From an uncultured bacterium (GTDB lineage: Bacteria > Vulcanimicrobiota > CADAWZ01): DNA of 64,000 nucleotides. Under the pieces are notes generated by a model. That model saw only the letters and a program-made list of their open reading frames with translations. It made no database searches and had not been told where the DNA came from. The stretch lies in the NCBI GenBank assembly GCA_902790465.1, contig CADASF010000005.1:70039-134038 (forward strand). The letters run 5' to 3'. The position numbers and the translations under genes are program-made. Positions 23,167 to 39,989 of the stretch are shown here, piece by piece. Position 1 is the stretch's first letter. Every line of letters starts with the position of its first letter.

Positions 23167-23181
23167 GCATGAGGTTTTTTT

Positions 23182-23889
23182 ATGAATAAACCAAAAATTT
23201 TAGTCGTTGATGATGAAAGCTCTATTGTAGAGTTCATAGAGATAAATTTAAAGCGTTCAAATTTTGATGTATTGAAGGCTTATACTGGAACAGAAGGTCT
23301 TTTGGTACTTGAAGCTGAAAAACCAGATTTGATGGTACTTGATTTGATGATGCCAGATATGAGTGGATTTGATGTCTGCAAAAAAGCAAGGCTGTTTTCT
23401 GAGGTTCCAATAATAATACTTACAGCAAAAGGCGATGACTATGATAAAATAGTTGGTCTTGAATCAGGGGCAGATGACTACATGGTAAAGCCTTTCAATC
23501 CTTGGGAATTGATTGCAAGAATTCAAGCCATACTCAGAAGGGTTTCTAAAAAAGTAAAAACTGATGAGAAAGAAGAATCTCTTGTTTTTGGAAATATGAA
23601 AATAGATTCTCTTGGAAGAAAAGTTTGGAAAGATGATAAATTGATTGAATTGACACCGAGAGAATATGATCTTTTGATGTTGTTTTCAAGCAATCCAGGA
23701 AAGAGTTTTTCAAGAGAAGAAGTTAGAAAGGCCATTTGGGGTCATGAATTCATTGAAGAGAGAAGTATTGATGTCCATGTAAGGCGTCTCAGAGATAAAA
23801 TAGAAGATAAACCAGAAGCCCCTTCAATGATTCTTACTATTTGGGGAGTAGGTTATAAATCAAACCCTGAAATATTTGGAAAAAAATAG
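23182..23889 (+). CDS. OmpR-family DNA-binding response regulator
   Basis: Receiver D-D-K residues (LVVDDE ... DLMMPD ... K). Winged-helix C-terminus. Confidence 0.9.
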   Translation: MNKPKILVVDDESSIVEFIEINLKRSNFDVLKAYTGTEGLLVLEAEKPDLMVLDLMMPDMSGFDVCKKARLFSEVPIIILTAKGDDYDKIVGLESGADDYMVKPFNPWELIARIQAILRRVSKKVKTDEKEESLVFGNMKIDSLGRKVWKDDKLIELTPREYDLLMLFSSNPGKSFSREEVRKAIWGHEFIEERSIDVHVRRLRDKIEDKPEAPSMILTIWGVGYKSNPEIFGKK

Positions 23890-25341
23890 ATGAATAAAAT
23901 ATTTAATTTTTTTCGAAATATGAGATGGAAACTCTTTTTGAGTTATTTTATTCTTGTCCTTTTTAATATATCTCTTTTGGGTTTCCTCTTTTATTTATTT
24001 ACAATGGGACATTTTATGTCAACAAGAGAATCATATCTTGAAACAGCTTCTGATTATTTTGTCAAATTTGTAACAGCAAATATGGAAAATGATGGACAGC
24101 TTATCGGAACATCAAAATTTTTTCTCAGACAAAATTGGGAAAAAATGGATTATGAACTCATTGTTTATGATAGGTCTAATCTAATTATAGCGGATTCTCG
24201 TTCACTTGATGAACAGATGGGAATTTTTTCAATGAATTCCAAGGGAGATGAAAAAATATTATCTGTTTTAAAGACTGGACGTCCTTTGTGTTGGAAGATA
24301 AAAAAAGACAGTTCTAATTTTATTTATTATGCTTGTCCTATTTTTTTTGAAACCAAAATTATTGGTGCAGTAAAAATAGGGATGACAACAGATGATTTTA
24401 ATGCTTTATTTGACATATTTAAAGATTACTTTCTTATAACTTTTATTCTGTCATTGATAGCTGCTTTGGGGCTTGCATTTATATTTGTAAGAAATATAAT
24501 GAAACCTGTCATGAAAATAAGAGATATTGCCTCAGAAATTTCACAGGGTAAATTTGAAAGCAGAGTAAATTATGATGCTATGGATGAATTGGGAGACCTA
24601 AGCAGAACGATAAATAAAATGGCAGAAGATTTAAATAAATTGGAAGAGACAAGAAATTTATTTCTTGCAAATATCTCCCATGAATTGAAAACTCCTCTTA
24701 CTATTATAAAAGGATTTGCACTGACAATGGAAGGCGATCCAGAAATAAGAGAAGATCAAAAGCATTTTCTTGAAACAATAAATAAAGAAGCAGATAGACT
24801 TACAAGGCTTGTAAATGAACTCCTTGAGTTAAGCAGATTGAAAACCAAGAAAACAGTTATGAAAATTGCTCCTTTTGATGTAAAAGAAATAATTGAAGAT
24901 GTTGTTTTCAATATGCAGACTAAGGCAGATAAATTTAACTGCACTATTTCTTGTTCATGTCCTGATAAACTTCCGCTTGTTCCTATCGATCCTGATAAAA
25001 TACATGAAGTTTTTATAAACTTGATTGACAATGCAATAAAATATTCACAAGGACATAAAGAAAAGCCTGAAGTAAAAGTTTTTGTTGAGACAACAGAAAA
25101 AGAACTCGTTGTAAAAGTCAGTGATAATGGTCCTGGAATACCACAAGCAGATTTGGATTTGATTTTTGAGAAATTCTTTAGGAGTGGAAGTAGATCGCAA
25201 AAAATCGAAGGTGTCGGTCTTGGGCTTTCAATCGTAAAAGAAATTGTAAATGCACATAATGGAAAAATATATGCCGAAAGCACAGAAGGTCAAGGCTGTA
25301 CTTTCGTAGTCAAATTGCCGTTACAACAACCCAAAAAGTAA
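23890..25341 (+). CDS. Sensor histidine kinase (2 TM, HAMP, HisKA, HATPase_c)
   Basis: H-box ISHELKTPLT. N, G1 and G2 boxes (DNAIKYS, DNGPGIP, GVGLGLSIV). Confidence 0.9.
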   Translation: MNKIFNFFRNMRWKLFLSYFILVLFNISLLGFLFYLFTMGHFMSTRESYLETASDYFVKFVTANMENDGQLIGTSKFFLRQNWEKMDYELIVYDRSNLIIADSRSLDEQMGIFSMNSKGDEKILSVLKTGRPLCWKIKKDSSNFIYYACPIFFETKIIGAVKIGMTTDDFNALFDIFKDYFLITFILSLIAALGLAFIFVRNIMKPVMKIRDIASEISQGKFESRVNYDAMDELGDLSRTINKMAEDLNKLEETRNLFLANISHELKTPLTIIKGFALTMEGDPEIREDQKHFLETINKEADRLTRLVNELLELSRLKTKKTVMKIAPFDVKEIIEDVVFNMQTKADKFNCTISCSCPDKLPLVPIDPDKIHEVFINLIDNAIKYSQGHKEKPEVKVFVETTEKELVVKVSDNGPGIPQADLDLIFEKFFRSGSRSQKIEGVGLGLSIVKEIVNAHNGKIYAESTEGQGCTFVVKLPLQQPKK

Positions 25342-25444: not shown

Positions 25445-25483
25445 AACCTCGGTGCTTGAAATGATTTTCAACACCGAGGTTTT
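25445..25483. terminator. Conserved-loop hairpin H1 (CCTCGGTG-cttgaaatgattttcaa-CACCGAGG)
   Basis: Perfect inverted repeat with a flanking T run. One of 5 related copies. Confidence 0.7.
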
Positions 25484-25485
25484 AG

Positions 25486-26187
25486 TTATTTTTCACGCAT
25501 TGGCTTACAGACCAATTTATTATTTCTTGCCTCTTTATTTATAGTTCCAGAGGCATCTTTATAAATTTCTGGAATAAAAAAATATTTTGTGTTGTGAGCA
25601 TCTATTGTCATTCTGTGAGAATCCATTATTTTACGGATATTCTCAGGTAATTGATCAAAATGTATGGGATTTGTTGGATTATTTATCTTTTTATAATGAT
25701 AAGGATGATTTTTAAAATCACTTCTATCTATATTTTCTTCTTTTACTTTTAAGGTGCGGACTTGTAAACCTTGTTTTTTATTGTGTCGTTTAGTTTTTTT
25801 CTTAAATTCGATTCTATCAATATCCAAAGGTTTTATTTCTTCATAATATTCATCAATAAAAAAATAACAAAAAATATTATTTTCTTCAATCTCTACCGCA
25901 GAAAACTCACCTTGAAGAACAAATTTTGAAAAATAATCATATAAAATTTCTGACTCTGTATAGCTTTTTATGACAAATTCTGGAACATGCCAACTGTTAG
26001 TTGTACAACAAAAAATATACCCAAATTTATCTATTGCAAACCACCTAGAACCAATAACAGAGAGTTCTCCAGGTGTGATCCTATCTGTATGTGCTTCTAA
26101 TTTTGAAGCTCTATAAGTTTCATCTGGTAAATTCTCTGATGTATCTATTTCACTAAATCCATTACTCTTATTTTTCTTTTTAGTCAT
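25486..26187 (-). CDS. Partner/putative immunity protein ImmA
   Basis: 233 aa. WFAIDKFGYIFCCTT and HPYHYKK..IHFDQLPENIRKIMDSHRM motifs. RBS GAGAGG. Confidence 0.6.
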   Translation of the reverse strand: MTKKKNKSNGFSEIDTSENLPDETYRASKLEAHTDRITPGELSVIGSRWFAIDKFGYIFCCTTNSWHVPEFVIKSYTESEILYDYFSKFVLQGEFSAVEIEENNIFCYFFIDEYYEEIKPLDIDRIEFKKKTKRHNKKQGLQVRTLKVKEENIDRSDFKNHPYHYKKINNPTNPIHFDQLPENIRKIMDSHRMTIDAHNTKYFFIPEIYKDASGTINKEARNNKLVCKPMREK

Positions 26188-26311
26188 TTAAACCTCTCAA
26201 AAAAATATTAAAATATATTTTTCAAGAAAATATATATAATACCTTTGCATAAAAAAATAACTTGCTTTTATACAAAACAAGCTATTTTTTATGGTAAAAA
26301 TCAATAAATTT

Positions 26312-27001
26312 TTAAATATTTATAGGAATTTTAGTAGTACATTCACTTTCTCTTTTTAGAAGATGGGGAATATTTTGAAACATTCTTCGGCAAGTAGAAC
26401 AATATGGAGTATATCCCAATTTACCTTCCTCTTTATAACGAAATGCTATTGTCAATCTGATATCTCTAATATCACTACCCATATTTAAAAGAGCATTTAC
26501 TGCTCTAAATTCTGCACAACACCCTACTCTACTATTTGTACCGTCAATATATTCATTTATCTTACCTACATTTTTAGCAAGGTCTTTTACGATTTTATTA
26601 GTTCTTGGATATAAAGTTTTATGAATAAGTCTTGGAGGATAAGAATCTGAGACATCTACTTTTATATATCCTTTTTTTATATCATAGGCACCTACAAAAA
26701 CTTTTTTCTTTACTTTGTCTCCAATAAGACTTTTTACCTCATAGTAAAGTTTTCTTATTTGCTTAAAAATAATCTGCTCGTAAAACTTATTTTCGTTCCG
26801 TTCAAGTAAACATTCATACTCTGAATAAGTATATGCAGATATTTTACCTTCCACATATGCCTTAGATAAATAATCTAATATCCTATATTCATATTTTTTT
26901 ACGATATTTTCAATATCCATATTTACTTCAGGTAAATAATCAAAATCATCATACCCTGAATTGTCAAAATTTTCAAAATCATAAAAATCAAAATCGTTCA
27001 T
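26312..27001 (-). CDS. Deaminase-fold (CDA-like zinc motif) protein DeamA, putative toxin/effector
   Basis: GCCAEFRAVNALL ... TPYCSTCRRMF resembles CAER(x)A(I/V)...PCxxC of tetrameric cytidine deaminases. Confidence 0.6.
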   Translation of the reverse strand: MNDFDFYDFENFDNSGYDDFDYLPEVNMDIENIVKKYEYRILDYLSKAYVEGKISAYTYSEYECLLERNENKFYEQIIFKQIRKLYYEVKSLIGDKVKKKVFVGAYDIKKGYIKVDVSDSYPPRLIHKTLYPRTNKIVKDLAKNVGKINEYIDGTNSRVGCCAEFRAVNALLNMGSDIRDIRLTIAFRYKEEGKLGYTPYCSTCRRMFQNIPHLLKRESECTTKIPINI

Positions 27002-27090
27002 TTTAACTTTACCTGACTTTCAAAATATTCAAAAAGCGCTTTTCGTTAATGTGATTATATCAAAATAAAATAATAATGTCGTTGTCTAAA

Positions 27091-27109
27091 AGTTGCAAAA
27101 AAGTTGCAT
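27091..27109. promoter_or_regulatory. Direct-repeat operator-like motif AGTTGCAAAAAAGTTGCAT in a divergent promoter region
   Basis: The same AGTTGYA-N4/5-AGTTGCA motif is found at 29120-29149, 32100-32119, 33472-33502 and 36096-36114. Confidence 0.5.
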
Positions 27110-27168
27110 AAGGTAGTATTTTGTTTGTGTGAATTAATGATTTTACAAAATTTACAAACTGTGATATA

Positions 27169-27807
27169 ATGCAAATTGCGTATAAATCACAAAAATATTT
27201 TATTAAAGAGGTTGTAATAATGTCTGTTAGTAGAGTGAAAACTTATATTGCTGCGGATTGGGATCATGATAAGGATTTTATAAAAATATTAAAAAAAATA
27301 TTAAAAGAAATTATGTTAGAAGAAAATTCTAAAGGTAAAGATTTAAAAAAATATTTTACCGATATACATGAAAAAATACAGATAAGTGATAACAATCCTT
27401 ATTGTATCATAAAAAAATCTTTAGATAAAAGACTTAAGATGTCAAAAGTATTCATTTTAATTGTTGGAAAACATACAAATAAGCTAAAAAAGGGAATATG
27501 TAGCTTTTGCAAACATTATAATAAAAAAAGAAAGACATGCTCTATTGGCAATGATGTTGATAAGCGGAGTTATATAAAATATGAATGTTATGAAGCTATT
27601 GACAAGGAGTTAAAAATAATCGTAATTTATAAAAATTATGATGTAGATAGAAAGAAATGTCCTAAAATTTTGAGAGAGGAAGGAACTCATATTCCTGCTT
27701 ATACTTTAACAAAAAAATCCACTCAATCAATTAAAATAGATAAGAACAAATTTTTAAATTTTCCTGAAATTGTAACTGAAATAGTGGGAGCATTGTACAC
27801 AGATTAA
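27169..27807 (+). CDS. Conserved Cys-rich hypothetical protein, copy 1 (TIR-like/flavodoxin-like fold suspected)
   Basis: VKTYIAADWDHDKD N-terminal strand plus acidic loop. Cys cluster PYC..GICSFC..KTC..YEC..KKC. About 85% identical to copies at 32221 and 36175. Start possibly at 27220. Confidence 0.5.
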   Translation: MQIAYKSQKYFIKEVVIMSVSRVKTYIAADWDHDKDFIKILKKILKEIMLEENSKGKDLKKYFTDIHEKIQISDNNPYCIIKKSLDKRLKMSKVFILIVGKHTNKLKKGICSFCKHYNKKRKTCSIGNDVDKRSYIKYECYEAIDKELKIIVIYKNYDVDRKKCPKILREEGTHIPAYTLTKKSTQSIKIDKNKFLNFPEIVTEIVGALYTD

Positions 27808-27809
27808 TA

Positions 27810-27968
27810 TACAGAGGTCAAGTCATTCCAAAAGATGACTTGGTAACAGTCAGAGTTTGGGTAACCTCAAAATCAAATGATGACAAAACGATAATTTGTG
27901 ACGGTTGGTTGTCAGTAGATGGTCGAAATATCTACAAATTCTCCAACTTCGCACTAAAGATGATGTAA
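27810..27968 (+). pseudogene. FabA/FabZ-like (hotdog) C-terminal gene fragment
   Basis: ...TIICDGWLSVDGRNIYKFSNFALKMM* resembles the FabA C-terminus ...[23 protein letters not shown]. A degraded second copy is at 36790-36967. Confidence 0.35.
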
Positions 27969-28039
27969 CAGCTTATTAGTAAATAAAAAAGGCTCAGTAC
28001 TGAATTAATATCACTGAGCCTTTTTGGGGATTGGTTACT

Positions 28040-28516
28040 TTAATCTATTTTAATATTTCCTGACCAACTCTCACAAAACTCTTTATAAGCCTGATCAACA
28101 TTCATATAAACATCATGAAAAACATCTATGTCTACTCTGTGTGAGTTCATAATTTCTTGAATATTTTTTGGAAGTTGATTAAAATTCAAAGGATTTTTTG
28201 GAGAAAATTTTACAGATTTCTTATACCAATATGGATATTTAATAAAATCCTCACTTTTTGGGATTGTTTCAACTATGGCATCAAAATAGAATAAGCCTTT
28301 GCTTGCAAGAACTTCGTCGTTATCAAAATCGTCTTCATCTATTCCCAAAGTTGTGAAAAAATATTTTTCTAAAAATTCTGTTTCTTCCTTGCTTTTACAT
28401 ACAAATTCTGGAACTTTATGACTTCCTGCAGTTGTACAAGCAAAAAGAAAACCATTTTTATCAGTGCCGAACCAAAGTATGTCTTCTGTCAGAACTTCAC
28501 CTTTAGTAATTCTCAT
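28040..28516 (-). CDS. Partner/putative immunity protein ImmB
   Basis: 158 aa with family motifs WFGTDKNGFLFACTTAGSHKVPEF and YPYWYKK..LNFNQLPKNIQEIMNSHR. 4-nt gap to DeamB. RBS AAGGAGG. Confidence 0.6.
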   Translation of the reverse strand: MRITKGEVLTEDILWFGTDKNGFLFACTTAGSHKVPEFVCKSKEETEFLEKYFFTTLGIDEDDFDNDEVLASKGLFYFDAIVETIPKSEDFIKYPYWYKKSVKFSPKNPLNFNQLPKNIQEIMNSHRVDIDVFHDVYMNVDQAYKEFCESWSGNIKID

Positions 28517-28520
28517 GTTT

Positions 28521-29036
28521 TTAATCCTCCTTATCTAATATATCCTTAAACATATATTTACAATTAGGACAATAAGGTACTAATAATAATCCTTCTTTTC
28601 GAAATCTATATGCTTTAGTTAACATAAACTCTCCCATAGAATAACCTTTTTTCAACATTTTATTAACTAAACGAAATTCAGCACATTTTCCAACAATATT
28701 TTCATGTTTAGCAGGATCATTAGTAGGATTAGAAGTAAGACCAGTAGAACCTATTCCACCAATATCTTTTGCTAAGTTCACTAAATATTCGTCAATATCT
28801 TCTGGAAAATCTCCTGAATAATCAACATCAAAATTTCCAATTTTATCATAGCAACCAACATATGCTCCCTTTTTTTTATGTATTTTCATTATTCTTTTTA
28901 TTTCTTCTAAAGCATTGTTTTTAGCTACTTTACAGTTAAAATCAATATCTTCATTTTCATAGTCTTCAATTATATAGCCAGTATTCCTAAGTTCAAACCA
29001 TCTTGCTTCTATGATATGTCTAATACCTTCTAACAT
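28521..29036 (-). CDS. Deaminase-fold protein DeamB
   Basis: GKCAEFRLVNKMLKKG ... VPYCPNCKYMF. RBS AAAGGAG. Confidence 0.6.
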   Translation of the reverse strand: MLEGIRHIIEARWFELRNTGYIIEDYENEDIDFNCKVAKNNALEEIKRIMKIHKKKGAYVGCYDKIGNFDVDYSGDFPEDIDEYLVNLAKDIGGIGSTGLTSNPTNDPAKHENIVGKCAEFRLVNKMLKKGYSMGEFMLTKAYRFRKEGLLLVPYCPNCKYMFKDILDKED

Positions 29037-29069
29037 AATAAACTCCTTTAAATATGGTTTAATTATTTA

Positions 29070-29083
29070 AAAGAGCGCTCTTT
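29070..29083. promoter_or_regulatory. Leader palindrome AAAGAGCGCTCTTT just downstream of the TGATATAAT -10 box of DeamB (minus strand)
   Basis: Perfect 14-bp palindrome. Analogous palindromes at 27030-27045, 32038-32053 and 36034-36049. Confidence 0.5.
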
Positions 29084-29480
29084 ATTGAGATTAATTATAT
29101 CATAGCAAAATAAATTTGTAGTTGTTGTAATAGTTGCAAAAAGTTGCATTTAAAATTTTAGAATCTTGACAAATTATGTTATAATATTAATTGTGTAATA
29201 TTTCACAAATATTTTTTAAAGAAGAAAACAATGTTTATGTTTTTAATTTTTACTCTTGCATGTTTTATTAAAAAATTGAAAGAAAACTGTAATGTAAAAA
29301 AAAGTAATGAAGATTTCATTCGGGATTTTTTTACACAAATTTTTAAAGATATATCTTTAGATGATATAAAAGTTAGAAAAAAAGAAGAAAGATTTTAATA
29401 ATAAAAACGATGTTTTTATTTTAGGATTATATTTAGATAAATCTACAATTAGCAAATTACGAAATAATAAAATAAATATT

Positions 29481-30509
29481 TTGAAAGACCTAAAAAATAA
29501 AATATTTGATAAAAATAATAAGGATAAGATAAGTTTAAATATGGATGAATTTATTAAAGATAACATGGAATTAGCATCAATAGATAATTTAATTGAGAAA
29601 TTAAAATCTGCAATTTTAGAAGTAAAATTAACTGAAACAGAAAAAGAAAGTATTAAAAATTTTAAAATAGAAAAATATGAAGAGAAAATAAATTTTATAT
29701 ATGAAGCATTTAGAATTGCTTTAAACAAAGATAATAAACTAAAAGAAAATTCTAATTCTTTAATTTGGAAAAGAGGAAACGCTTTAGTAAATGCAATAAC
29801 TGGAGATATATTTAGCTATGGATTTAATAAAAGAAGTGAAGAGAAAAATATTGTTGTAATTCCAGTAGATACATCTTTTGAAACTCATATTACAACAAAA
29901 TTAGAAAAAGAAAAATATCCACTTGTTTCTGAAAATACAATTCACGGACAATTTCTTTCAAGAATGTACAAAACTACAGTCAAAAAAAATCCACCCCCAA
30001 AAAATGATATAGAAAGTAAGCGTAAAAGACATTATACTGAAGAAGATATTAAAAATTCAATAGAAGAATCCTTAACACTCCAAGGAATTAAGCCTTTAGG
30101 AAATAATTCTAAAAATAATCCTCTTTATCCAATTGGAACAATTGCTGTTATTGGTCATGATCTTGATACTATTGACACTATTTTTTATCTTTTAGCAATA
30201 TCACAATTTGATGAAAATAATAACGCTCAAAGCAATGAAAACAATATAAAAATAGCTATAGAAAATCTTTTAGATTTTTATAATAACAAGGGGCAAGAAT
30301 ATTCTCTATACTTGCCATTAATAGGTACAGGATTATCACGAGTTAATTTCACTAATAAGGAATCACTCGAATTTATTTTATCCACTATGATGGAAAATAA
30401 AGATAAAATACATGGAAAAATAAATATTGTTATTTCAAAAACAATACAACAACAGGAATTAGAAGAATTATATAAAGTTATTTCTGAATGGAAGAATAAA
30501 TATAAATAA
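29481..30509 (+). CDS. Macro-domain-like protein, copy 1 (apparently N-terminally disrupted relative to copy 2)
   Basis: NIVVIPVDTSFETH and LYLPLIGTGLSRV resemble macro motifs (IVNAANssL / AFPAISTGiyG). TTG start. The N-terminal homology is carried by a separate 55-aa ORF at 29232-29399. Confidence 0.4.
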   Translation: MKDLKNKIFDKNNKDKISLNMDEFIKDNMELASIDNLIEKLKSAILEVKLTETEKESIKNFKIEKYEEKINFIYEAFRIALNKDNKLKENSNSLIWKRGNALVNAITGDIFSYGFNKRSEEKNIVVIPVDTSFETHITTKLEKEKYPLVSENTIHGQFLSRMYKTTVKKNPPPKNDIESKRKRHYTEEDIKNSIEESLTLQGIKPLGNNSKNNPLYPIGTIAVIGHDLDTIDTIFYLLAISQFDENNNAQSNENNIKIAIENLLDFYNNKGQEYSLYLPLIGTGLSRVNFTNKESLEFILSTMMENKDKIHGKINIVISKTIQQQELEELYKVISEWKNKYK

Positions 30510-30514
30510 AGTAA

Positions 30515-30553
30515 AAACCTCGGTGCTGAAATGATTTTCAACACCGAGGTTTT
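30515..30553. terminator. Conserved-loop hairpin H2
   Basis: aaaacctcggtg ctgaaatgattttcaa caccgaggtttt. Confidence 0.7.
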
Positions 30554-30556
30554 TAC

Positions 30557-31261
30557 TTATCTTTCACGCATTGGCTTACAGACCAATTTATTATTTCGTG
30601 CCTCTTTATTTATAGTTCCAGATACATCTTTATAAATTTCTGGTATAAAAAAATATTTTGTATTGTGAGCATCTATTGTCATTCTGTGAGAATCCATTAT
30701 TTTGCGGATATTCTCAGGAAGTTGATCAAAATGTATGGGATTTGTCGGATTATTTATTTTTTTATAATGATAAGGATGATTTTTAAAATCACTTCTATCA
30801 ATATTTTCTTCTTTTAATTTTGAGACACGGACTTGTAAACCTTGTTTTTTATTATGTCGTTTCGTTTTTTTCTTAAATTCACTTCTATCAGTATCTAATG
30901 ATTTTATAAATTCAAAATAATATTCATCAATCAATTCATAACAAAAAATATTATTTTCTTCAATCTCTACCTCAGAGAACTCACCTTGAAGAACAAATTT
31001 TGAAAAATAATCATATAAAATTTCTGACTCTGTATAGCTTTTTATAAAAAAAACAGGAACATGCCAAGTTTTAGTATAACAACAAACAATATAACCAAAT
31101 TTATCTATAGCAAACCACATAGAGCCAAAAATAGTGAGTTCTCTTGGTGTTATTCTATCTGTATTTGCTTCTAATTTTGAAACTCTATAAGCTTCATCTT
31201 GTAAATTCTCTGATGTATCTATTTCACTAAATACATTGTTCTTATTTTTTTTCTTACTCAT
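30557..31261 (-). CDS. Partner/putative immunity protein ImmA' (about 88% identical to ImmA)
   Basis: 234 aa; same motifs as ImmA. Confidence 0.6.
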   Translation of the reverse strand: MSKKKNKNNVFSEIDTSENLQDEAYRVSKLEANTDRITPRELTIFGSMWFAIDKFGYIVCCYTKTWHVPVFFIKSYTESEILYDYFSKFVLQGEFSEVEIEENNIFCYELIDEYYFEFIKSLDTDRSEFKKKTKRHNKKQGLQVRVSKLKEENIDRSDFKNHPYHYKKINNPTNPIHFDQLPENIRKIMDSHRMTIDAHNTKYFFIPEIYKDVSGTINKEARNNKLVCKPMRER

Positions 31262-31341
31262 TTAACTCTCCTCTAAATAAGGAATAGCATATAATTTTCC
31301 ACACAATATATGCTATTCCCTGTTTTTATTCTATTTAGTTA

Positions 31342-32007
31342 TTAAAGTTCTATTTCTGTATCAGTACATTCACTTTCTCTTTTTAGGAGATGTGGATATT
31401 CTTGAAACATTTTCTGACAATTTTTACAATATGAAATAGCCACTAACTTACCGCTATCATACTGAAATGGTCTTGTGAATCTGATATCTTTAATATTACT
31501 ACCCATATTTAAAAGACCATTTATTGCTCTAAATTCTGCACAACAAGCAACAACATTGCTTCCTTGAATATGCTCATTTATCTTACCAACTTTTTTAGAA
31601 AGATCTTTTAAAATCTTATTAATTCTTGGACGAGCTTGTTCAATTTTATTAATTCTTGGAGGATAAGAATCTGAGCAATCTACTTTTATATATCCCTTTT
31701 TTTTATCATAAGCCCCTATATAAGCTTTTTTATTAGCTTCCTTACTTCCTTCAATATCCTTTACTTCCTTGTAAAGTTTTCTTATTTTTCCAAAAATAAT
31801 CTGCTCGTAAAACCTATTTTCGTCTCGTTCAAGTAAACATTCATACTTTGAATAAGTATATGCAGATATTTTACCTTCCATATATGCCTTAGATAAATCA
31901 TCTAATATCCTATATTCAAATTTTTTTACAATATTTTCAATATCCATACAGGCAGGTAAAGGTTCTAAATCCCAATACCCTGAATTGTCAAAATTAAAGT
32001 TTTCCAC
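31342..32007 (-). CDS. Deaminase-fold protein DeamA' (about 65-70% identical to DeamA)
   Basis: ACCAEFRAINGLLNMG ... SYCKNCQKMF. Start reassigned to the GTG at 32007, preceded by the GGAGGTGAAATTAAA leader identical to DeamC. The ORF-track TTG at 32040 lies inside the leader palindrome. Confidence 0.55.
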   Translation of the reverse strand: MENFNFDNSGYWDLEPLPACMDIENIVKKFEYRILDDLSKAYMEGKISAYTYSKYECLLERDENRFYEQIIFGKIRKLYKEVKDIEGSKEANKKAYIGAYDKKKGYIKVDCSDSYPPRINKIEQARPRINKILKDLSKKVGKINEHIQGSNVVACCAEFRAINGLLNMGSNIKDIRFTRPFQYDSGKLVAISYCKNCQKMFQEYPHLLKRESECTDTEIEL

Positions 32008-32220
32008 TTTAATTTCACCTCCATTTTTTAAAATATTCAAAGAGCACTCTTTGTTGAAATTATTATATCAAAGTAAAATAAATCCGTCGTTGTCTAAGAA
32101 GTTGTAAAATAGTTGCATAAGGTTGTATTTTTTGCGTTAGTTAATGATTTTACAAAATAATTGTGATATAATGCAAATTGCGTATAAATTACAAAAATAT
32201 AATTAAAGGGGGGGGGAATA

Positions 32221-32808
32221 ATGTCTGCTCGTAGAGTGAAAACTTATATTGCTGGTGATTGGGATCATGATAAGGATTTGATAGATATATTAAAAAATAT
32301 ATTAAAAGAAATTATGTTAGAAGAAAATTCTAATGGTAAAGATTTAAAATCATATTTTACCGATATACATGAGAAAATACAAATAAGTGATAACAACCCT
32401 TATTGTATTATAAAAAAATCTTTAGATGAAAGATTTGAATTGTCAAAACTATTTATTTTAATTGTTGGCGAACATACAAATAAACTAACAAAGGGAATAT
32501 GTAGTTTTTGCAAAGATTATAATAAACATAATAAGACTTGTTCTCTTAATAATAAAATTGACAAAAAAAGTTATATAAAATATGAATGTGATAAAGCTTT
32601 TGAAAATGACTTAAAAATCATTGTAATTTATAAAGATTATAATGTTGAGGAAAAAAAATGTCCTGAAATTTTGAGAGAGGAAGGAACTCATATTCCTGCT
32701 TATACTTTAACAAAAAAATCCCCTCAATCAATTAAAATAGATAAGGACAAATTTTTAAATTTTCCTGAAATTGTAACTGAAATAGTGGGAGCATTGTACA
32801 CAGATTGA
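32221..32808 (+). CDS. Conserved Cys-rich hypothetical protein, copy 2 (TIR-like?)
   Basis: MSARRVKTYIAGDWDHDKD. Promoter ttgtgatataatgc (extended -10) 45 nt upstream. Confidence 0.5.
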   Translation: MSARRVKTYIAGDWDHDKDLIDILKNILKEIMLEENSNGKDLKSYFTDIHEKIQISDNNPYCIIKKSLDERFELSKLFILIVGEHTNKLTKGICSFCKDYNKHNKTCSLNNKIDKKSYIKYECDKAFENDLKIIVIYKDYNVEEKKCPEILREEGTHIPAYTLTKKSPQSIKIDKDKFLNFPEIVTEIVGALYTD

Positions 32809-32848
32809 TAAAAATGGTGCTGTGATCAATAAATTCCCCCCATTTTTG

Positions 32849-33245
32849 AAAACAGTCATGAAGATAAGAGATATTGCCTCTGAAATTTCTCTTGGTAAAT
32901 TTGAAAGTAGATTTAATTATGAGGTCATGGACGAATTAGAATGCCATAAAATATTCACAAGGACATAAAGAAAAGCCAGAAGTCAAAGTAAATGTTGAAT
33001 TAGCAGAGAAAGAACTTATTGTAAAAGTAAGTGATAATGGACCAGGTATTCCACAAGCTGATTTGGATTTGATTTTTGAAAAGTTCTTTAGAAGTGGAAG
33101 TAGATCGCAAAAAATTGAAGGTGTAGGTCTTGGTCTTTCAATAGTTAAGGAAATTGTAAATGCTCATGACGGCAAAATATATGCAGAAAGTCCAGAGGGG
33201 CAAGGTTGCACTTTCGTAGTCAAACTGCCACTAAAGGCAAAATAA
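32849..33245 (+). pseudogene. Truncated duplicate of the 3' end of the histidine-kinase gene (internal deletion)
   Basis: ...KTVMKIRDIASEISLGKFESRFNYEVMDEL joined to ...KYSQGHKEKPEVKVNVELAEKELIVKVSDNGPGIPQADLDLIFEKFFRSGSRSQKIEGVGLGLSIVKEIVNAHDGKIYAESPEGQGCTFVVKLPL. Corresponds to HK residues about 205-235 and 375-483. Confidence 0.85.
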
Positions 33246-33260
33246 ATCTTTTGGAAAACT

Positions 33261-33300
33261 AAAAACCTCGGTGAAAAGTAATTTCCACCGAGGTTTTTTT
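33261..33300. terminator. Conserved-stem hairpin H3 (variant loop)
   Basis: aaaaacctcggtg aaaagtaatttc caccgaggttttttt. Confidence 0.7.
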
Positions 33301-33599
33301 GTGAGTAAATCTTTCTTAAAAGCTAAATTCTATGATGTTGCTTTAAATTTTTTAAAATTTTCTATAGGGTGTTTTGGTAAAGTGTTTTTGCATATTTAAA
33401 ATTTGCTATAAACTATCTGTATATTACCATTTTATCTTGGCTAGGCTAATTAGTAGTTTAAAACACACTTTAGTTGTAGAAAAAGTTGCAAAAAACTTGC
33501 ATTTTGTTTTTTATGATTCTACAATATTTACAAAATTTCCAAATTGTGCAATAATTCAAATAGTGTACTATTACACAATTATTTTTTAGGAGGAAAAAA

Positions 33600-34844
33600 A
33601 TGTTCATTTTTTATACTTTTGCATGTTTCATTAGAAGTTTAATGGATAATTGGAATGTACAACCATACCAAGAAAAAATTATAAATAGCTTATTTAAAGC
33701 ATATATAGGGGATAAGAATTATAATGATTCATATTATTTACAGCCAGAAACAGTTAGTAAAGTTATGAAGAATAGTATAAACCTTCCAAATTTTGTAAAA
33801 GGAATAACTTCTGATGAAGACTATGATACAAAAATTTATTCTGCTATGTATAATTTTATTTTAGAAAATATTAATTCAATAGATAATTTAATTGATGAAT
33901 TAAAATCTGCTATTTTAGAAGCAGAAAATTTAAGTGAAACAGAAAAAGAAACTATTAAAAATTTAAAAACAGAAAAAAAAGAAGATAAAATAAATTTCAT
34001 ATGTGAAGCATTTAGAATTGCTTTAAAAAATGATAATAAACTAAAGATAGACCATAATTTAATTTGGAGAGGAAAAAATTCAGTAAATGCAATAATTGGA
34101 GATTTATTTAGCTATGGATTTAATAAAAGAAGAGAATGCAAAAATATTGTTGTAATTCCAGTTGATACATCTTTTGAAACCCATATTACAACAAAATTAG
34201 AAAAAGAAAAATATCCACTTGTTTCTGAAAAAACAATTCACGGAAAATTTCTTTCAAGGATGTATAAAATTACTGTAAAAAAAGAACCTCTACTAAAAAA
34301 TGATACGGAAAGTAAGCGTAAGAGATGTTATACTGAAGAAGGTATTAAAAATTTAATAGAAAACAACTTAAAAGAACAAGGAATCGAGCCTTCAGGAAAT
34401 AATTCTAAAAATAAGCCTCTATATCCAATTGGAACAATTGCTGTTATTTATCATCTTAATACCATTTTTTATCTTTTAGCTATATCAGAATTTGATGAAA
34501 ATAATAATGCTCAAAGTAATGAAAAAAATATAAAAATAGCAATAGAAAATCTTTTGGAATTTTATGATAAAAAAGGGCAAGGGTATTCTTTGTATCTGCC
34601 ATTAATAGGAACAGGATTATCACGAGTTCGTTCATCATCTGAAAAAATATCCAAAATGTCCCCCTCAATAGTTTGTTTATCTCCTAAAGAATCCTTTGAA
34701 TGTATTTTATCTACAATTATGGAAAAAACAGATAAGATATTAGGAGAAATAAATATTGTTATTTGGAAAGAAATACACCCAGAGCATTTGGAAGAGATAA
34801 ATTTATTTTTGAATACACTCAGAAAATCTGAAAAATTAAAATAA
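33600..34844 (+). CDS. Macro-domain-like protein, copy 2 (full length, 414 aa)
   Basis: NIVVIPVDTSFETHITT and LYLPLIGTGLSRV. About 75% identical to copy 1 with two indels. Confidence 0.45.
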   Translation: MFIFYTFACFIRSLMDNWNVQPYQEKIINSLFKAYIGDKNYNDSYYLQPETVSKVMKNSINLPNFVKGITSDEDYDTKIYSAMYNFILENINSIDNLIDELKSAILEAENLSETEKETIKNLKTEKKEDKINFICEAFRIALKNDNKLKIDHNLIWRGKNSVNAIIGDLFSYGFNKRRECKNIVVIPVDTSFETHITTKLEKEKYPLVSEKTIHGKFLSRMYKITVKKEPLLKNDTESKRKRCYTEEGIKNLIENNLKEQGIEPSGNNSKNKPLYPIGTIAVIYHLNTIFYLLAISEFDENNNAQSNEKNIKIAIENLLEFYDKKGQGYSLYLPLIGTGLSRVRSSSEKISKMSPSIVCLSPKESFECILSTIMEKTDKILGEINIVIWKEIHPEHLEEINLFLNTLRKSEKLK

Positions 34845-34865
34845 TCAATCAATAATTTATTATAA

Positions 34866-34908
34866 ACAAACCTCGGTGCTGAAATGATTTTCAACAACGA
34901 GGTTTTTA
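34866..34908. terminator. Conserved-loop hairpin H4 (one stem mismatch)
   Basis: aaacctcggtg ctgaaatgattttcaa caacgaggttttt. Confidence 0.65.
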
Positions 34909-34928
34909 GTTAAAATAATATTATGATT

Positions 34929-35414
34929 TTACTCTTTATAAATAGGTGGAACAAAAAAATATTTTATTTGGCGAGAATCAATTTGAATTTTATGATAATT
35001 CATTATATTTTGAATATTTTTAGGAAGTTGATTAAAATGTAAAGGTTTTTTGGGGAATGTAAGTTTTTTATACCAATAGGGATGAATCTCAAAATCTTTT
35101 TCATTATCTATTGTCTCATATTTAATGATAGAATCAAAAGAACTAATGCCTCTATCTAAAAGAATGACATCTTCCTCACCTATTAAATCATAGTCTAATT
35201 CATAAGAAAATTTTTCTATTTTTATATCTAAATTTGAAAATTCAGAACTAAATAAAAAAAAATTTTCTAAAACGCAAGTATTTTCTTGGCTTTTACATAC
35301 AAATTCTGGAACATTAAATGTTCCTGCGGATGTACAAGAAAAAACATAGCCATTTTTATCAATAGCAAACCATCTAATATCATTACAGAAAAGGTCTTCT
35401 TCGCTAAATCTCAT
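34929..35414 (-). CDS. Partner/putative immunity protein ImmC
   Basis: 161 aa. WFAIDKNGYVFSCTSAGTFNVPEF and HPYWYKK..LHFNQLPKNIQNIMNYHK. 5-nt gap to DeamC. RBS AAGGAGG. Confidence 0.6.
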   Translation of the reverse strand: MRFSEEDLFCNDIRWFAIDKNGYVFSCTSAGTFNVPEFVCKSQENTCVLENFFLFSSEFSNLDIKIEKFSYELDYDLIGEEDVILLDRGISSFDSIIKYETIDNEKDFEIHPYWYKKLTFPKKPLHFNQLPKNIQNIMNYHKIQIDSRQIKYFFVPPIYKE

Positions 35415-35419
35415 CTTTA

Positions 35420-36001
35420 TTAATCCTCCTTTAGTATTTCCATTCCTTCAAACATTTTTAAGCAATTGGGACAATATGGCACTATATCCCAACCCCAATT
35501 TTTTATTCTAACTGCTTTAATTAATCTAATTGCTTCTATATTACTACCTTGCCATAGCAATTTATTGACTACATGGAATTCAGCACATCTACCAACTTTA
35601 TTAAAAGTATTTTTTTCTCCTGTAATTTTTAATTCTTTTTCAATTTTATTAGAAGTATCTGTTTCTTCTTTCCTTGTAATTTTTAATCCTTTATCTTTCA
35701 TAATTTTTTTTAATTCGTCATGAATATCTTTGTCTGCGGGTGGACTTCTTGAATAATCTGCACAAGCATTTCCAGTATCTATATCATATCCTCCAATATA
35801 AACAGCAGGATTTTCATATTTCATTTTTATTCCATTTTTTCTATTATTTTCTCTTATTTTTTTAAAATCATCTATTTTCTTGTTTATTTCTTCTTCAGCT
35901 TTTTTTTCGTATGTTGCATTTTCTGTTCGTTCTTGTATATATATATTGTCATAATTTTTATATAAAAGTATTGGGTATTTAAAATGTTTGAAATATTTCA
36001 T
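35420..36001 (-). CDS. Deaminase-fold protein DeamC
   Basis: GRCAEFHVVNKLLWQG ... VPYCPNCLKMF. RBS GGAGGTG 8 nt upstream. Confidence 0.6.
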   Translation of the reverse strand: MKYFKHFKYPILLYKNYDNIYIQERTENATYEKKAEEEINKKIDDFKKIRENNRKNGIKMKYENPAVYIGGYDIDTGNACADYSRSPPADKDIHDELKKIMKDKGLKITRKEETDTSNKIEKELKITGEKNTFNKVGRCAEFHVVNKLLWQGSNIEAIRLIKAVRIKNWGWDIVPYCPNCLKMFEGMEILKED

Positions 36002-36174
36002 TTTAATTTCACCTCCAATTTTTTTTTAATATTCAAAAAGCACTTTTCGTTGATGTTATTATATCAAAGTAAAATAAATCCGTCGTTGTCTAAGAAGTTG
36101 TAAAATAGTTGCATAAGGTTGTATTTTTTGCGTTAGTTAATGATTTTACAAAATAAATTGTGATATAATGCAAA

Positions 36175-36786
36175 TTGCGTATAAATTACAAAAATATAAT
36201 TAAAGGGGTTGTAAAAATGATTGTTGATAGAATAAAAACTTATATAGCTGGAGATTGGGATAACGATAAGGATTTTATAAAAATATTAAAAAAAATATTA
36301 AAAGGAATTATTTTAGAAGAAAATTATAAAGGTAAAGATTTTAAAAAAAAATTTACCGATATACATGAAAAAATACAGATAAGTGATGACAACCCTTATT
36401 GTATTATAAAAAAATCTTTAGATGAAAGATTTGAACGATCAAAACTATTTATTTTAATTGTTGGAAAACATACAAATAAGCTAAAAAAGGGAATATGTAG
36501 TTTTTGCAAACATTATAATAAAAAAAGAAAGACATGCTCTATTGATAATGATGTTGATAAGCGGAGCTATATAAAATATGAATGTGATAAAGCTTTTGAA
36601 AATGACTTAAAAATAATCGTAATTTATAAAGATTATAAGGTAGAAAGAAAAAAATGTCCTAAAATTTTGAGAGAGGAAGGAACTCATATTCCTGCTTATA
36701 CTTTAACAAAAAAATCCCCTCAATCAATTAAAATAGATAAGAACAAATTTTTAAATTTTCCTGAAATTGTAGCTGAAATAGCGTGA
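36175..36786 (+). CDS. Conserved Cys-rich hypothetical protein, copy 3 (TIR-like?). Premature stop relative to copies 1 and 2.
   Basis: MIVDRIKTYIAGDWDNDKD. Ends ...EIVAEIA*, 5 codons earlier than the other copies. Start probably at 36217. Confidence 0.45.
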   Translation: MRINYKNIIKGVVKMIVDRIKTYIAGDWDNDKDFIKILKKILKGIILEENYKGKDFKKKFTDIHEKIQISDDNPYCIIKKSLDERFERSKLFILIVGKHTNKLKKGICSFCKHYNKKRKTCSIDNDVDKRSYIKYECDKAFENDLKIIVIYKDYKVERKKCPKILREEGTHIPAYTLTKKSPQSIKIDKNKFLNFPEIVAEIA

Positions 36787-36967: not shown

Positions 36968-36987
36968 GCGTGAAAGATAAACAACAA

Positions 36988-37024
36988 AAAAACTCGGTGC
37001 TGATACCAAACACCGAGTTTTTTT
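36988..37024. terminator. Hairpin H5 (CTCGGTG stem variant) between the module array and the phosphoesterase gene
   Basis: aaaaactcggtg ctgataccaaa caccgagttttttt. Confidence 0.65.
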
Positions 37025-37035
37025 GTTTTTGATTC

Positions 37036-37929
37036 TTATATTTCAATTGTATATGGATTGACACCTTCAGGACTAAAGCTCATATTTACGCATTTTATTC
37101 TGCCTTTTACGAGTTCTTGTCTTTCATGGATATGTCCCCAAAGTGCAAGACAGACTTTTGGATGTCTATATAAAACTTCACCTAAATATTTACTTCCTGC
37201 CCAAGCATTTCTTACACAAGCCACAGCTGTTGCATTTTTTCTTATAAGACCTTCTTTAAATGGAACACAATGGAAAACTGCTACTATTTTTCTTGCATTT
37301 CCTTCTATAGAAGCTATGTCATCTTCGAGTTTTTCCTTCATTTGATCACAGAATATTACATCATCTGGAAAACCTTTTATATAATCAATGTCATTAGTTC
37401 CTGTCTGCTCAATACTAAAGAGGGTTTTTATTTTGACATATCCTCTTTTCCAATCTGCCTGTGTCATTTGAGCCCAACTTACTACTTGTTTTGTCTCTTG
37501 CAAATTATCATCAAGCCTTATGAATTTAGTTCCAAAAGGTGGTGAATAAGTTCTGACAAAAGTATAGTCAAACCAACCTATATTTCCTGCAAAACCAACA
37601 TCTTTATATAATAAAGGTTGTTTTTCAAGGGAATAAAAGCCATATTTTTCATATATTGCTGGAAGTACATTTTGTAATCTATTTAGAGATGTTTCTGTGC
37701 TGTTTTTATCTGCAATCCATAGATCATGGTTACCAGAAACATACATTTTTAGACCACGAAAATTTGATATAGATGCTAAAAAATCTTCTAAGGCAGCATC
37801 ATTGGCAGGAGCAATATCTCCTCCTAAAATAAGAACTTCTGCATCACTTTTATTTATTGCGTCAACCATTTGAGGCAATCTTGCATTGTTCTTTGGGATA
37901 TGAATATCTGAAACAGCTATTATTTTCAT
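37036..37929 (-). CDS. Calcineurin-like metallophosphoesterase
   Basis: Metal-binding motifs DIH...GDI...GNHD...GHIH. Confidence 0.8.
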   Translation of the reverse strand: MKIIAVSDIHIPKNNARLPQMVDAINKSDAEVLILGGDIAPANDAALEDFLASISNFRGLKMYVSGNHDLWIADKNSTETSLNRLQNVLPAIYEKYGFYSLEKQPLLYKDVGFAGNIGWFDYTFVRTYSPPFGTKFIRLDDNLQETKQVVSWAQMTQADWKRGYVKIKTLFSIEQTGTNDIDYIKGFPDDVIFCDQMKEKLEDDIASIEGNARKIVAVFHCVPFKEGLIRKNATAVACVRNAWAGSKYLGEVLYRHPKVCLALWGHIHERQELVKGRIKCVNMSFSPEGVNPYTIEI

Positions 37930-37946
37930 AGTTTTTTCTTTCCTAA

Positions 37947-39989
37947 TTAATGAATTCTATCTCCAGGTTTTGCTCCTGCGTCTGGTCTTAAAACAAATAT
38001 ATCACTACCACCAGGACCTGCAGCAATAACCATGCCTTCACTCATACCAAATTTCATTTTTCTTGGCTGTAGATTTGCAACTATTACAACTTGTGTTCCC
38101 TCAAGTTTTTCAGGTTCATAAGCTGATTTAATACCTGCAAATATGTTTTTTTCAATTCCTCCACCTATATCAACTATCAAGTGGAGTAATTTTTTTGCTC
38201 CTTCTACATGCTCTGCTTTTTTCACATATCCAACTCTTAAATCTATTTTAGCAAAATCATCTATTGTGCATTCAGGAGCGAGTGGTTCTATCTCAGAAAT
38301 TTCAACTTTTTCTTCAGTTTTTTCTTTTACTTCAACTTCATTTTCTTTTTTAGTTTCTTCTGTCATTTTGTCTATACTCTCTTTCTCAGTTCTTGTTGCA
38401 AGATGTGGAAGTTTTTCAATTTGTCTATTTTCAAGGGTTGAATTGATATGCGACCAATCCATATTTCCTGTTTTTAGGCTTTCTTCTGTTTTTGAAGCAA
38501 ATTTTGGCATTACTGGTTTCAAATATAATACCAAAAGCCTAAATGCTTCGAGAGATGCTGTCAATTTTGATCTTGTTTTTTCTGGATCTGTTTTGACAAG
38601 GCTCCAAGGCTCACTGTCTTCAACAAATTTATTTGCTACATCAGAGAGTCTGCATATTTCACGCATTGCTCTTGCATAGTCAAGTTTTTCATAAAGTTGT
38701 TTTATTGTTTCAGCACTATTTTTTATTTCATCAATAAAAGGCAAATCCTCTTCTAAGATTTTTCCTGTTTTGCCTTCAAGAGATCTTGAAAGAATAGAAG
38801 AAGTTCTAACTCCTAAATTTGCTATTTTTCCAACTATATCTGAATTTACTTTTAAAACAAAATCATCAAAATTTAAATCTATGTCTATTATACCGCCTGA
38901 TAATTTACATGCATAGTAATATCTCAAAAATTCAGGATTTATATATTTTGCAAATGTAGAGGCTTTTATAAATGTTCCTCTTGATTTTGACATTTTTTCT
39001 CCATTTATAGTCAAAAAACCATGGACAAAAACTTTGTCAGGAGTTCTAAATCCTGAACTCATCAGCATAGCTGGCCAAAATAGACAGTGGAAATAGATAA
39101 TATCTTTTCCGATAAAATGACATATTTCAGTATCAGGTGATTTCCACCATGATTCAAAATCTGATGAATTTTTATCACACCAATTTTTAGTTGAAGCTAT
39201 ATAACCTACTGGAGCATCGAGCCAAACATAGAAATATTTGTCATCTGTTCCAGGAATTTTAAATCCAAAATATGGTTCATCTCTCGATATATCCCAATTT
39301 TTGAGACCTTCTTTAAACCATTCATTTAATTTTTTATGTATTTCTTCTTGAACATGACCACCGCCAAGCCATTCTTGAAGCTCTTTTGAGAAATTCCCCA
39401 ATTTGAAAAAGTAATGTTTTGAATTTTTCATTATTGGTTTGCTGTGGCAAACTGTACAATAAGAATCAGAAAGTTCTGCAGGATCGTAAGTTGCTCCACA
39501 TTTTTCACAAGAATCACCATATTGGTCTTCAGCCCCGCATTTTGGGCATGTCCCTTTTATAAAGCGATCAGGAAGAAACATTTTGTCTTTTTCACAATAC
39601 ATTTGTGAAATCTCTTTTTCTTCTATATGACCACCCTGTACCATAGAATTGAATATGTGTTCACATATATTTCTATTTTCTTCAGAATGAGTTGTATAAT
39701 AATTATCAAATTCTACAAGAAATTTTCCGAAATCTTCAATTCTTTCTTCGTGTATTTTTGATATATACTCCTCATTTGTCATTTTGGCTTTTCTTGCACC
39801 AATCATGACTGGAGTTCCATGGGTGTCATCTGCACACATATATCTGCAGTCAACACCATTCATTTTATGATTTCTAACCCAAATGTCCGTCTGTATATAT
39901 TCTACTAAATGTCCAAGATGAAGTGGACCATTTGCATATGGAAGTGCGGAAGTAACTAATATTTTTTTCTTGTTCATGAATTTCCCCAT
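37947..39989 (-). CDS. metG: Methionyl-tRNA synthetase with C-terminal tRNA-binding (EMAP/Trbp111-like) domain
   Basis: HLGH and KMSKS motifs. CPKCG...CEKCG zinc knuckle. Confidence 0.95.

Follow-up and report, generated by a model that had tools for sequence, protein, structure and literature searches.

A repeated bidirectional promoter cassette with direct-repeat arrays in a Thoeris/deaminase island of an uncultured rumen bacterium

The island and its five promoter cassettes

The DNA analysed here, a stretch of 64,000 nucleotides on contig CADASF010000005.1 of an uncultured rumen bacterium (hereafter the window), contains an island of repeated gene units. Judged by their profile matches, the plus-strand genes of this island are components of a type II Thoeris defence system, ThsA with a Macro domain and ThsB with a TIR domain; each of the four operons on the minus strand encodes a small protein bearing a deaminase signature (CAE...PYCxxC), then a partner protein (Table 1). 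The five intergenic regions upstream of the thsA and thsB genes are copies of one bidirectional promoter cassette, about 200 bp long from start codon to start codon, and this cassette is the subject of the present analysis.

The cassette precedes genes that are not homologous: thsA, thsB and three very different types of deaminase gene. Although thsA and thsB are unrelated, the five regions can be aligned all the way from the repeat block, over the -35 and -10 boxes and the leader, to the ribosome-binding site (RBS). Each holds two outward-facing promoters with an extended -10 box of the sigma-70 type and, between them, three or four head-to-tail units GTTG(C/T)A; in copy 4 (the 33-kb copy) the minus -10 has decayed. 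Extra units occur outside the main block, cGTTGTC upstream in copies 1, 3 and 5 and gGTTGTA downstream in copies 3 and 5. An earlier inspection of the letters without database searches (the sequence-only reading) had listed most of these motifs, and they are real, at the places given and above chance, with small corrections. The AGTTG(C/T)A repeats are indeed present in all five regions, but the 33-kb region is not divergent as had been proposed: on its left stand a kinase-gene remnant and a terminator, with neither a deaminase gene nor a deaminase-leader palindrome. A spacer of 4 or 5 nt everywhere does not hold, the two perfect units of copy 2 (the 29-kb copy) being 3 nt apart. Three units in copies 2 and 4 had been counted correctly; the other copies, thought to have two, carry three or four as well, and the last unit of copy 4, misread at first, is ACTTGCAT. 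The outward-facing pair of TGnTATAAT boxes is the common design, from which copy 4 departs in lacking the minus box and in having TGTGCAATAAT as its plus -10.

In the window, AGTTGYA-N4-AGTTGCA with at most one mismatch has 4 matches, all in the array, for 0.04 expected, and a weight-matrix search for two units at a distance of 10-12 nt yields 12 pairs in the five regions and a single weak one elsewhere (mean of shuffles, 1.5). TGATATAAT is matched 11 times versus 2.6 expected: the 7 matches of the array are all intergenic and outward-facing, the other 4 lie inside genes. The palindrome claimed for each deaminase leader is found in all four (Table 1), with 6 strand matches versus 0.8 expected.

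The plus promoters of copies 1, 2 and 4 have a -35-like TTTACA or TTTAGA with a spacer of 17 nt; a promoter scanner gives that of copy 1 the top score of the array region (11/12 plus TG) and those of copies 2 and 4 10/12 plus TG. In the minus promoters the -35 region is no better than ACGACA, as in copy 1 (ACGACA-17-TATAAT plus TG in the scanner). The plus promoters of copies 3 (32149-32172) and 5 (36145-36169) have lost 5 and 4 nt, respectively, between -35 and -10, where other strains have 17 nt, and these shortened spacers may correspond to weakened or switched-off thsB promoters. An Rfam search found nothing in the array.

Over 137 nt copies 3 and 5 show 95% identity, and this likeness extends as far as the start codons of two deaminases that are only about 35% identical as proteins. 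In strain L001, collinear and about 96% identical overall, the first thsB bears a cassette of the 29-kb type, and the first two cassettes have identical left halves. We are thus dealing with one cassette, bounded by two start codons, duplicated and exchanged among positions by recombination. Part of the resemblance between copies is inheritance and hence no proof of function; since the copies are paralogous and exchanged by recombination, five occurrences are not five independent confirmations.

Table 1. Features of the island and of the five cassette copies (positions in the window)
Feature	Position	Strand	Remarks
Thoeris/deaminase island	25.4-36.8 kb		repeated gene units
Two-component genes	23182-25341	+	OmpR/PhoB-family response regulator 23182-23889, histidine kinase 23890-25341; kinase gene abuts array
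Module 1 operon	25486-27001	-	deaminase-like gene 26312-27001, then partner gene 25486-26187
Other deaminase + partner pairs	28040-29036, 30557-32007, 34929-36001	-	equivalents of module 1
thsB (TIR) genes	27220-27807, 32221-32808, 36214-36786	+	ThsB profile matches
thsA (Macro) genes	29231-30509 (split), 33600-34844	+	ThsA_Macro profile matches
Kinase-gene remnant	32847-33245	+	internally deleted 3' copy of histidine-kinase gene with own terminator; about 85% identical to 24500-24590 and 25023-25341
Copy 1	27002-27219		between deaminase gene 26312-27001 (-) and thsB 27220-27807 (+)
Copy 1, minus side	27030-27045; 27054-27062	-	palindrome; extended -10
Copy 1, units	27080-27086, 27091-27097, 27102-27108
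Copy 1, plus promoter	27142-27147; 27160-27170	+	-35 TTTACA; TGTGATATAAT
Copy 2	29037-29230		between deaminase gene 28521-29036 (-) and thsA (start 29231, interrupted)
Copy 2, minus side	29070-29083; 29094-29102	-	palindrome; -10
Copy 2, units	29120-29126, 29132-29138, 29142-29148
Copy 2, plus promoter	29157-29162; 29180-29185	+	-35 TTTAGA; -10 TATAAT, extended box TGTTATAAT
Copy 2, thsA-leader palindrome	29191-29208		TTGTGTAATATTTCACAA
Copy 3	32008-32220		between deaminase gene 31342-32007 (-, GTG start) and thsB 32221-32808
Copy 3, minus side	32038-32053; 32062-32070	-	palindrome; -10
Copy 3, units	32088-32094, 32100-32106, 32111-32117, 32121-32127
Copy 3, plus promoter	32149-32154; 32164-32172	+	TTTACA; TGATATAAT; spacer only 12 nt
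Copy 3, RBS	32208-32216		poly-G run
Copy 4	33440-33599	+	right half only, upstream of thsA 33600-34844
Copy 4, units	33472-33478, 33484-33490, 33495-33501		last = ACTTGCA
Copy 4, plus promoter	33527-33532; 33550-33555	+	-35 TTTACA; -10 AATAAT, extended box TGCAATAAT, one hexamer mismatch
Copy 4, leader palindrome	33561-33578
Copy 5	36002-36213		between deaminase gene 35420-36001 (-) and thsB 36214-36786
Copy 5, minus side	36034-36049; 36058-36066	-	palindrome; -10
Copy 5, units	36084-36090, 36096-36102, 36107-36113, 36117-36123
Copy 5, plus promoter	36145-36150; 36161-36169	+	TTTACA; TGATATAAT; spacer 13 nt

The repeat units and their possible regulator

One representative of each cassette class was compared (copies 1, 2, 3, 4 and the L001 variant). 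Of the columns that separate the minus -10 from the plus -35, 13 of the 18 belonging to unit cores are invariant versus 8 of the 36 others (Fisher p=5.5e-4, five classes). The units follow each other at 10, 11 or 12 nt in every cassette variant. The first one always stands at precisely 26 nt from the minus -10, though the letters in between are not the same in all classes; to the plus -10, the last unit has a variable distance of 38 to 63 nt. In copy 4 the units persist, with one core change, despite the decay of the minus -10. These alignments indicate that the repeat cores and their placement are under a detectable constraint across distinct cassette classes, and we consider with moderate confidence that the units form a protein-binding array.

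Could inheritance alone explain the pattern? Repeats and palindromes would then simply ride on a cassette homogenised by duplication and gene conversion, with constitutive promoters and no dedicated factor, and the finding would be ordinary. The near identity of copies 3 and 5 agrees with this, as do the mosaic structure of the cassettes between strains, the unit number (3 or 4) and the length of the A-runs, which vary like those of a small tandem repeat, the block deletions of a natural strain whose genes are intact, the absence of the whole island from some strains, and -10 boxes so perfect in their consensus that they need no help. However, gene conversion evens out continuous tracts, whereas here cores of 6 nt are kept while spacers vary, the 26-nt distance is held across classes, and the units of copy 4 have outlasted its -10. 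Because the conserved cores alternate with variable spacers and their position is fixed, gene conversion alone is insufficient, and we regard this explanation as somewhat unlikely.

Phased A-tracts might also bend the DNA and serve as an UP-like enhancer for both promoters, any specific protein being superfluous: A-rich spacers (AAAA, AAAAA, AAAT) do recur every 10-12 nt directly upstream of both promoters. Yet in this region of about 26% GC the conserved positions are those of the cores, which contain G and C, rather than those of the A-tracts; besides, the spacers GAAGT, GTAAT and TAAGG are no A-tracts. Such a structural role appears very improbable.

We thus favour, though tentatively, a reading in which the units are a head-to-tail binding array for one trans-acting regulator of the OmpR/PhoB winged-helix type. 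One sequence-specific protein would bind the array, the winged-helix kind being the likeliest, in the form of dimers arranged head to tail along a single face of the DNA. The promoter-proximal unit of the array would lie at about -33 to -39 of the deaminase promoter, in place of the missing -35. Since this unit is fixed 26 nt from a -10 box deprived of a usable -35, the protein would act stereospecifically on the deaminase promoter, most probably as a class-II-type activator replacing the -35, or else by occlusion. From about -45 to -75 the same protein would modulate the ths promoter, and the Thoeris and deaminase modules would be switched together; both transcripts would begin, at about +2, with a short palindrome that might function as a second operator or fold into a weak 5' stem-loop. 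The gene for the regulator itself would lie outside the array. Common control of the island genes is likely. As to the single dedicated factor of the sequence-only reading, the shared bidirectional design and the constrained cores and position give it substance, but the word "dedicated" goes beyond the evidence.

Sites of the OmpR/PhoB family, among them the pho boxes and the WalR sites, offer the model. Like them, the cassettes combine a unit of 6-8 nt with an AT-rich spacer, head to tail, at the period of a helical turn, and place the units at the -35 position, or slightly upstream of it, in a promoter without a good -35. They differ by three or four units instead of two, and by a spacing that varies from 10 to 12 nt; moreover the cassette sites are predicted only, and the neighbouring OmpR-type regulator is unsupported as the cognate protein. 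In the HLR1 motif of RpaB, (G/T)TTACA(T/A)(T/A)-N2-repeat (PMC6525291), the unit agrees with GTTGCAAA at 7 of 8 positions, with one difference, a resemblance only.

Several points weigh against the winged-helix reading. The core/spacer test uses units that were defined on the same sequences; common descent and gene conversion link the copies, which brings the effective sample to 3-5 classes, and the transcription start positions used throughout are those predicted from the -10 boxes. A consensus-perfect extended -10 should function without a -35, which weakens the argument for an activator. Strain L002 has deletions of 43 and 59 nt by which two cassettes lose units, the genes remaining intact: the island can therefore be carried without the units. 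No regulator was found; the array proteins have no DNA-binding domain detectable with Pfam or PADLOC profiles, in keeping with the earlier remark that the array contains no regulator gene, and the motif is absent from the 10 kb on either side of the orthologues of the adjacent regulator. Finally, no relatives outside one narrow lineage are available for an independent footprinting. Identity within the thsB subfamily falls from 81-89% (paralogues) to 50% or less, a 62% match being an internally deleted copy of the same lineage; a metagenome scan for the -10 plus palindrome gave 19 unrelated matches, none with units; and a viral scan for the three-unit DNA pattern gave at least 80 matches, of lengths mostly implying periods of 9-10 nt and in the number that chance predicts.

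The regulator could be sought next door. A gene for an OmpR-type regulator is located 1.6 kb upstream of the array, with its kinase gene abutting the latter, and the regulator, responding to an environmental signal, might bind the GTTGYA units and govern the island. Its gene is the sole one for a DNA-binding protein within about 17 kb; the family suits head-to-tail repeats (the best profiles are MtrA, RpaB, VanR and YycF, all under the curated cut-offs), and a kinase remnant is found again inside the array, beside copy 4. A precedent exists, too: the OmpR-type protein RpaB is reported to control a CRISPR-Cas system via HLR1 repeats (10.1101/2023.12.07.570523). But orthologues with 91, 81 and 76% identity keep the operon of GGDEF, regulator and kinase genes with other genes downstream, no array and no unit pairs within 10 kb on either side, a strain of the same species has an identical kinase and no array, and in the window no units stand upstream of the operon. 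Because orthologous operons and the same-species strain do without array or motif, the adjacency looks as if a mobile island had inserted at a variable spot, and we judge this two-component system an improbable regulator. A scan of a collection of representative genomes with the adjacent regulator gave 53% identity as best match, so that the collection does not include this species.

Other readings of the units were discarded. TTGCA-N6-TTGCA is not a sigma-54 promoter, the GG of the -24 element being absent; the minus-strand TGCAAC does not make an ECF-type (extracytoplasmic function) promoter, its spacers to CGAC being 10 or 21 nt; and the units cannot serve as -35 boxes, which would imply a spacer of 23 nt. 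Sites for site-specific recombination were rejected too: there is no recombinase, and homologous exchange explains the mosaics.

Palindromes in the leaders

The palindrome of the deaminase leaders begins about 9 nt past the -10, that is at about +2 of the predicted transcript. As an RNA helix it would have 6 bp and a loop of 4 nt, with 94% of pairs formed in six variants; one double change exchanges GC and AU, an A-C mismatch of the DNA becomes G-U in the transcript, and variable positions fall in the loop. The helix score is nevertheless reached by 30 of 500 shuffles, the hairpins amount to about -2 to -5 kcal/mol only, and the helix is missing from the best fold in 2 of the 4 leaders. The palindrome may be a shared operator or a weak 5' stem-loop.

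The palindrome had been called toxin-specific. This, too, goes beyond the evidence: the variant AAAAAG goes with types A and C and the variant AAAGAG with types A' and B, and because the two variants ignore the type of deaminase or partner, an operator of the cognate antitoxin style is argued against. A reading as cre site of CcpA was rejected as well, the TG and CA ends being missing. In the deaminase leader of copy 2 (29031-29088, minus strand) pairing is possible between the 3' half of the palindrome and the Shine-Dalgarno region; this alternative fold, of 13 bp (-11 kcal/mol, z -2.9), would hide the RBS. It is present in copy 2 only, and a conserved leader fold sequestering the Shine-Dalgarno sequence was rejected.

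A second palindrome, absent from the sequence-only reading, occupies the equivalent position in the ths leaders. In the thsA leader of copy 2 (29191-29208) it reads TTGTGTA-ATAT-TTCACAA, which matches at 13 of 14 positions the consensus of the Rex repressor, TTGTGAA-N4-TTCACAA (PMC5355995), and is the sole site of the 64 kb with at most one mismatch. The thsA leader of copy 4 is weaker, with 11 of 14. A relaxed Rex pattern is matched in the window by these two thsA leaders only, for 0.16 expected.

The leader palindromes might accordingly be protein operators placed over the transcription starts, bound at ths by a redox (NADH/NAD+) repressor of the Rex type and at the deaminase side by another dimeric repressor. 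The Rex match and its rarity fit this idea, as do the location of both palindromes at about +2 of the predicted transcripts, which is a classical operator position, and the weakness of the hairpins, outside the best fold in half of the deaminase leaders. On the other hand, the thsB leaders carry degenerate versions only, in strain L001 the 29-kb site has its left half decayed to CTATGTA, the 64-kb window contains no rex gene, and no such site precedes a canonical Thoeris II operon, so that a Rex site as a general feature of Thoeris was rejected. For the deaminase leaders, the G-U pair, the double-sided change and the variation in the loop fit an RNA helix equally well or slightly better. We therefore hold the operator explanation for unlikely. 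The likeness to a Rex operator thus lies in one thsA leader overlapping the predicted transcription start; the difference lies in there being a single good copy. A sensor of NADH/NAD+ linked to an NAD-using defence system is only a lead suggested by this sequence. An improbable reading combines these elements into a portable cis-regulatory plug, which would wire each Thoeris sensor or effector gene head to head to a deaminase toxin-immunity pair and subject all of them to one trans-acting factor on the helically phased array, with leader operators that may read redox state or NAD; it would imply a regulon as wide as the defence island, without a regulator in it, co-inducing NAD-consuming signalling and nucleic-acid deaminases.

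Strain variation, gene content and relation to known systems

The natural variants concern both the genes and their control region. The two L002 deletions (1420-1440 and ~5380-5400) have a common right boundary just before TAAGGTTGTA, and the second one also removes the minus -10. In strain L121 (2243-3150), which has an identical kinase, the whole array is lacking and a frameshifted remnant of a partner gene lies between the kinase and phosphoesterase genes: with the kinase present and the array missing, the island is a presence/absence polymorphism. Contig L012 (1-1564) has a deaminase-partner pair with a cassette of the copy-1 type elsewhere in the genome, beside a fused SHMT/GCV_T gene, the plus-side sequence departing right after TGTGATATAATGCAAATT, so that the module moves as a unit. 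In a related contig with such a pair and cassette elsewhere, the A-run between units is one base longer. The poly-G of the RBS of the second thsB (32208-32216) has 9 G here and 8 in other strains, a difference that may be slipped-strand variation, and a poly-T run in a deaminase leader (36021-36029) varies in length. By these comparisons, the island evolves rapidly, and so does its control region.

The flanks of the island are the GGDEF/OmpR-type regulator/histidine-kinase operon (20434-25341) on one side and a phosphoesterase gene plus metG (37036-39989) on the other. Its Thoeris proteins match the Macro-domain family PF20016 with E 3e-32 and 2e-28, and in PADLOC ThsA is recognised with E 1.7e-52 and ThsB with E 2.7e-46 and 7.5e-48. 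The first thsA is interrupted: the open reading frame 29231-29398 hits a stop and reading restarts at 29481, strain L001 having the intact version of 421 aa. The third thsB ends at a TGA (36784-36786) 6 codons before the end of the other two copies (...AEIA* vs ...EIVGALYTD*).

For the deaminase-like proteins, the zinc motifs CAEF and (P/S)YCxxC are invariant across all paralogues; beyond these motifs, the label is weakly supported. The Pfam match to a YwqJ-like deaminase (E=0.31) is far under the cut-off, and with a model of predicted local-distance difference test score (pLDDT) 72.5 the top Foldseek matches are the cytidine deaminases 3b8f and 1jtk (E 0.17-0.6, template-modelling scores 0.35-0.47). 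Members of the family are exceedingly scarce: among 5.8 billion proteins a profile search finds only 5 clusters, all of one lineage. The partner proteins match no Pfam or PADLOC profile, even with E<=10 allowed, and no PDB entry by sequence; Pfam and PADLOC detect no DNA-binding domain in them, and their structure model is poor (pLDDT 41). The viral collection contains no relatives of either deaminase or partner.

The kinase-gene remnant lies between the second thsB and cassette copy 4. In the related contig L006 a deleted thsB, the kinase remnant and the first partner gene are joined, an arrangement that suggests, by its sequence, that the remnant has recombined with the true kinase gene. Where gene units border on each other or on the flanks, terminator hairpins of nearly the same sequence (AAAACCTCGGTG...CACCGAGGTTTT) are found repeatedly (25445-25483, 30510-30557, 33268-33300 and 36983-37027), and for this reason the terminators too appear to belong to the repeated module set.

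How abortive-infection systems stay silent and then switch on is an open question, and the known cases have a regulator gene beside the operon. If the array is truly a binding site, several Thoeris genes and toxin-like deaminases would be under the joint control of one unlinked factor by way of a repeated, exchangeable promoter module, and the unusual head-to-head pairing would be a hint of cooperation between the deaminase pairs and Thoeris. The natural variants are ready-made tests of this: repeats are deleted, -35/-10 spacers shortened, the poly-G of an RBS changed in length, or the island absent.

Several thsB copies are usual for Thoeris, and the island genes match the ThsA_Macro and ThsB profiles strongly. 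The organisation is another matter: in canonical type II Thoeris (e.g. L008-L011) thsA and thsB form one operon, whereas here each ths gene has its own cassette, and 4 of the 5 are divergent from an operon of deaminase and partner, with terminators between. The minus-strand operons recall type II toxin-antitoxin and toxin-immunity operons by a small toxin-like gene followed by its partner and by a palindrome of 14-16 bp just past the -10; they differ from the toxin-antitoxin type in a partner without detectable DNA-binding domain and in a palindrome variant independent of the type of protein. Other defence systems encode their regulators beside their operons, such as the WYL repressors BrxR/CapW (PMC9122601) and the pairs CapH-CapP and CapK-CapS (PMC13373217). 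The island shares with these the placing of defence or toxin genes under a common cis element, which implies a switched expression of abortive infection. There, however, the regulator adjoins the operon and the operators are palindromic; here the array holds no regulator gene, comparison does not support an adjoining one, and the main element is an array of direct repeats in a bidirectional promoter, present five times.

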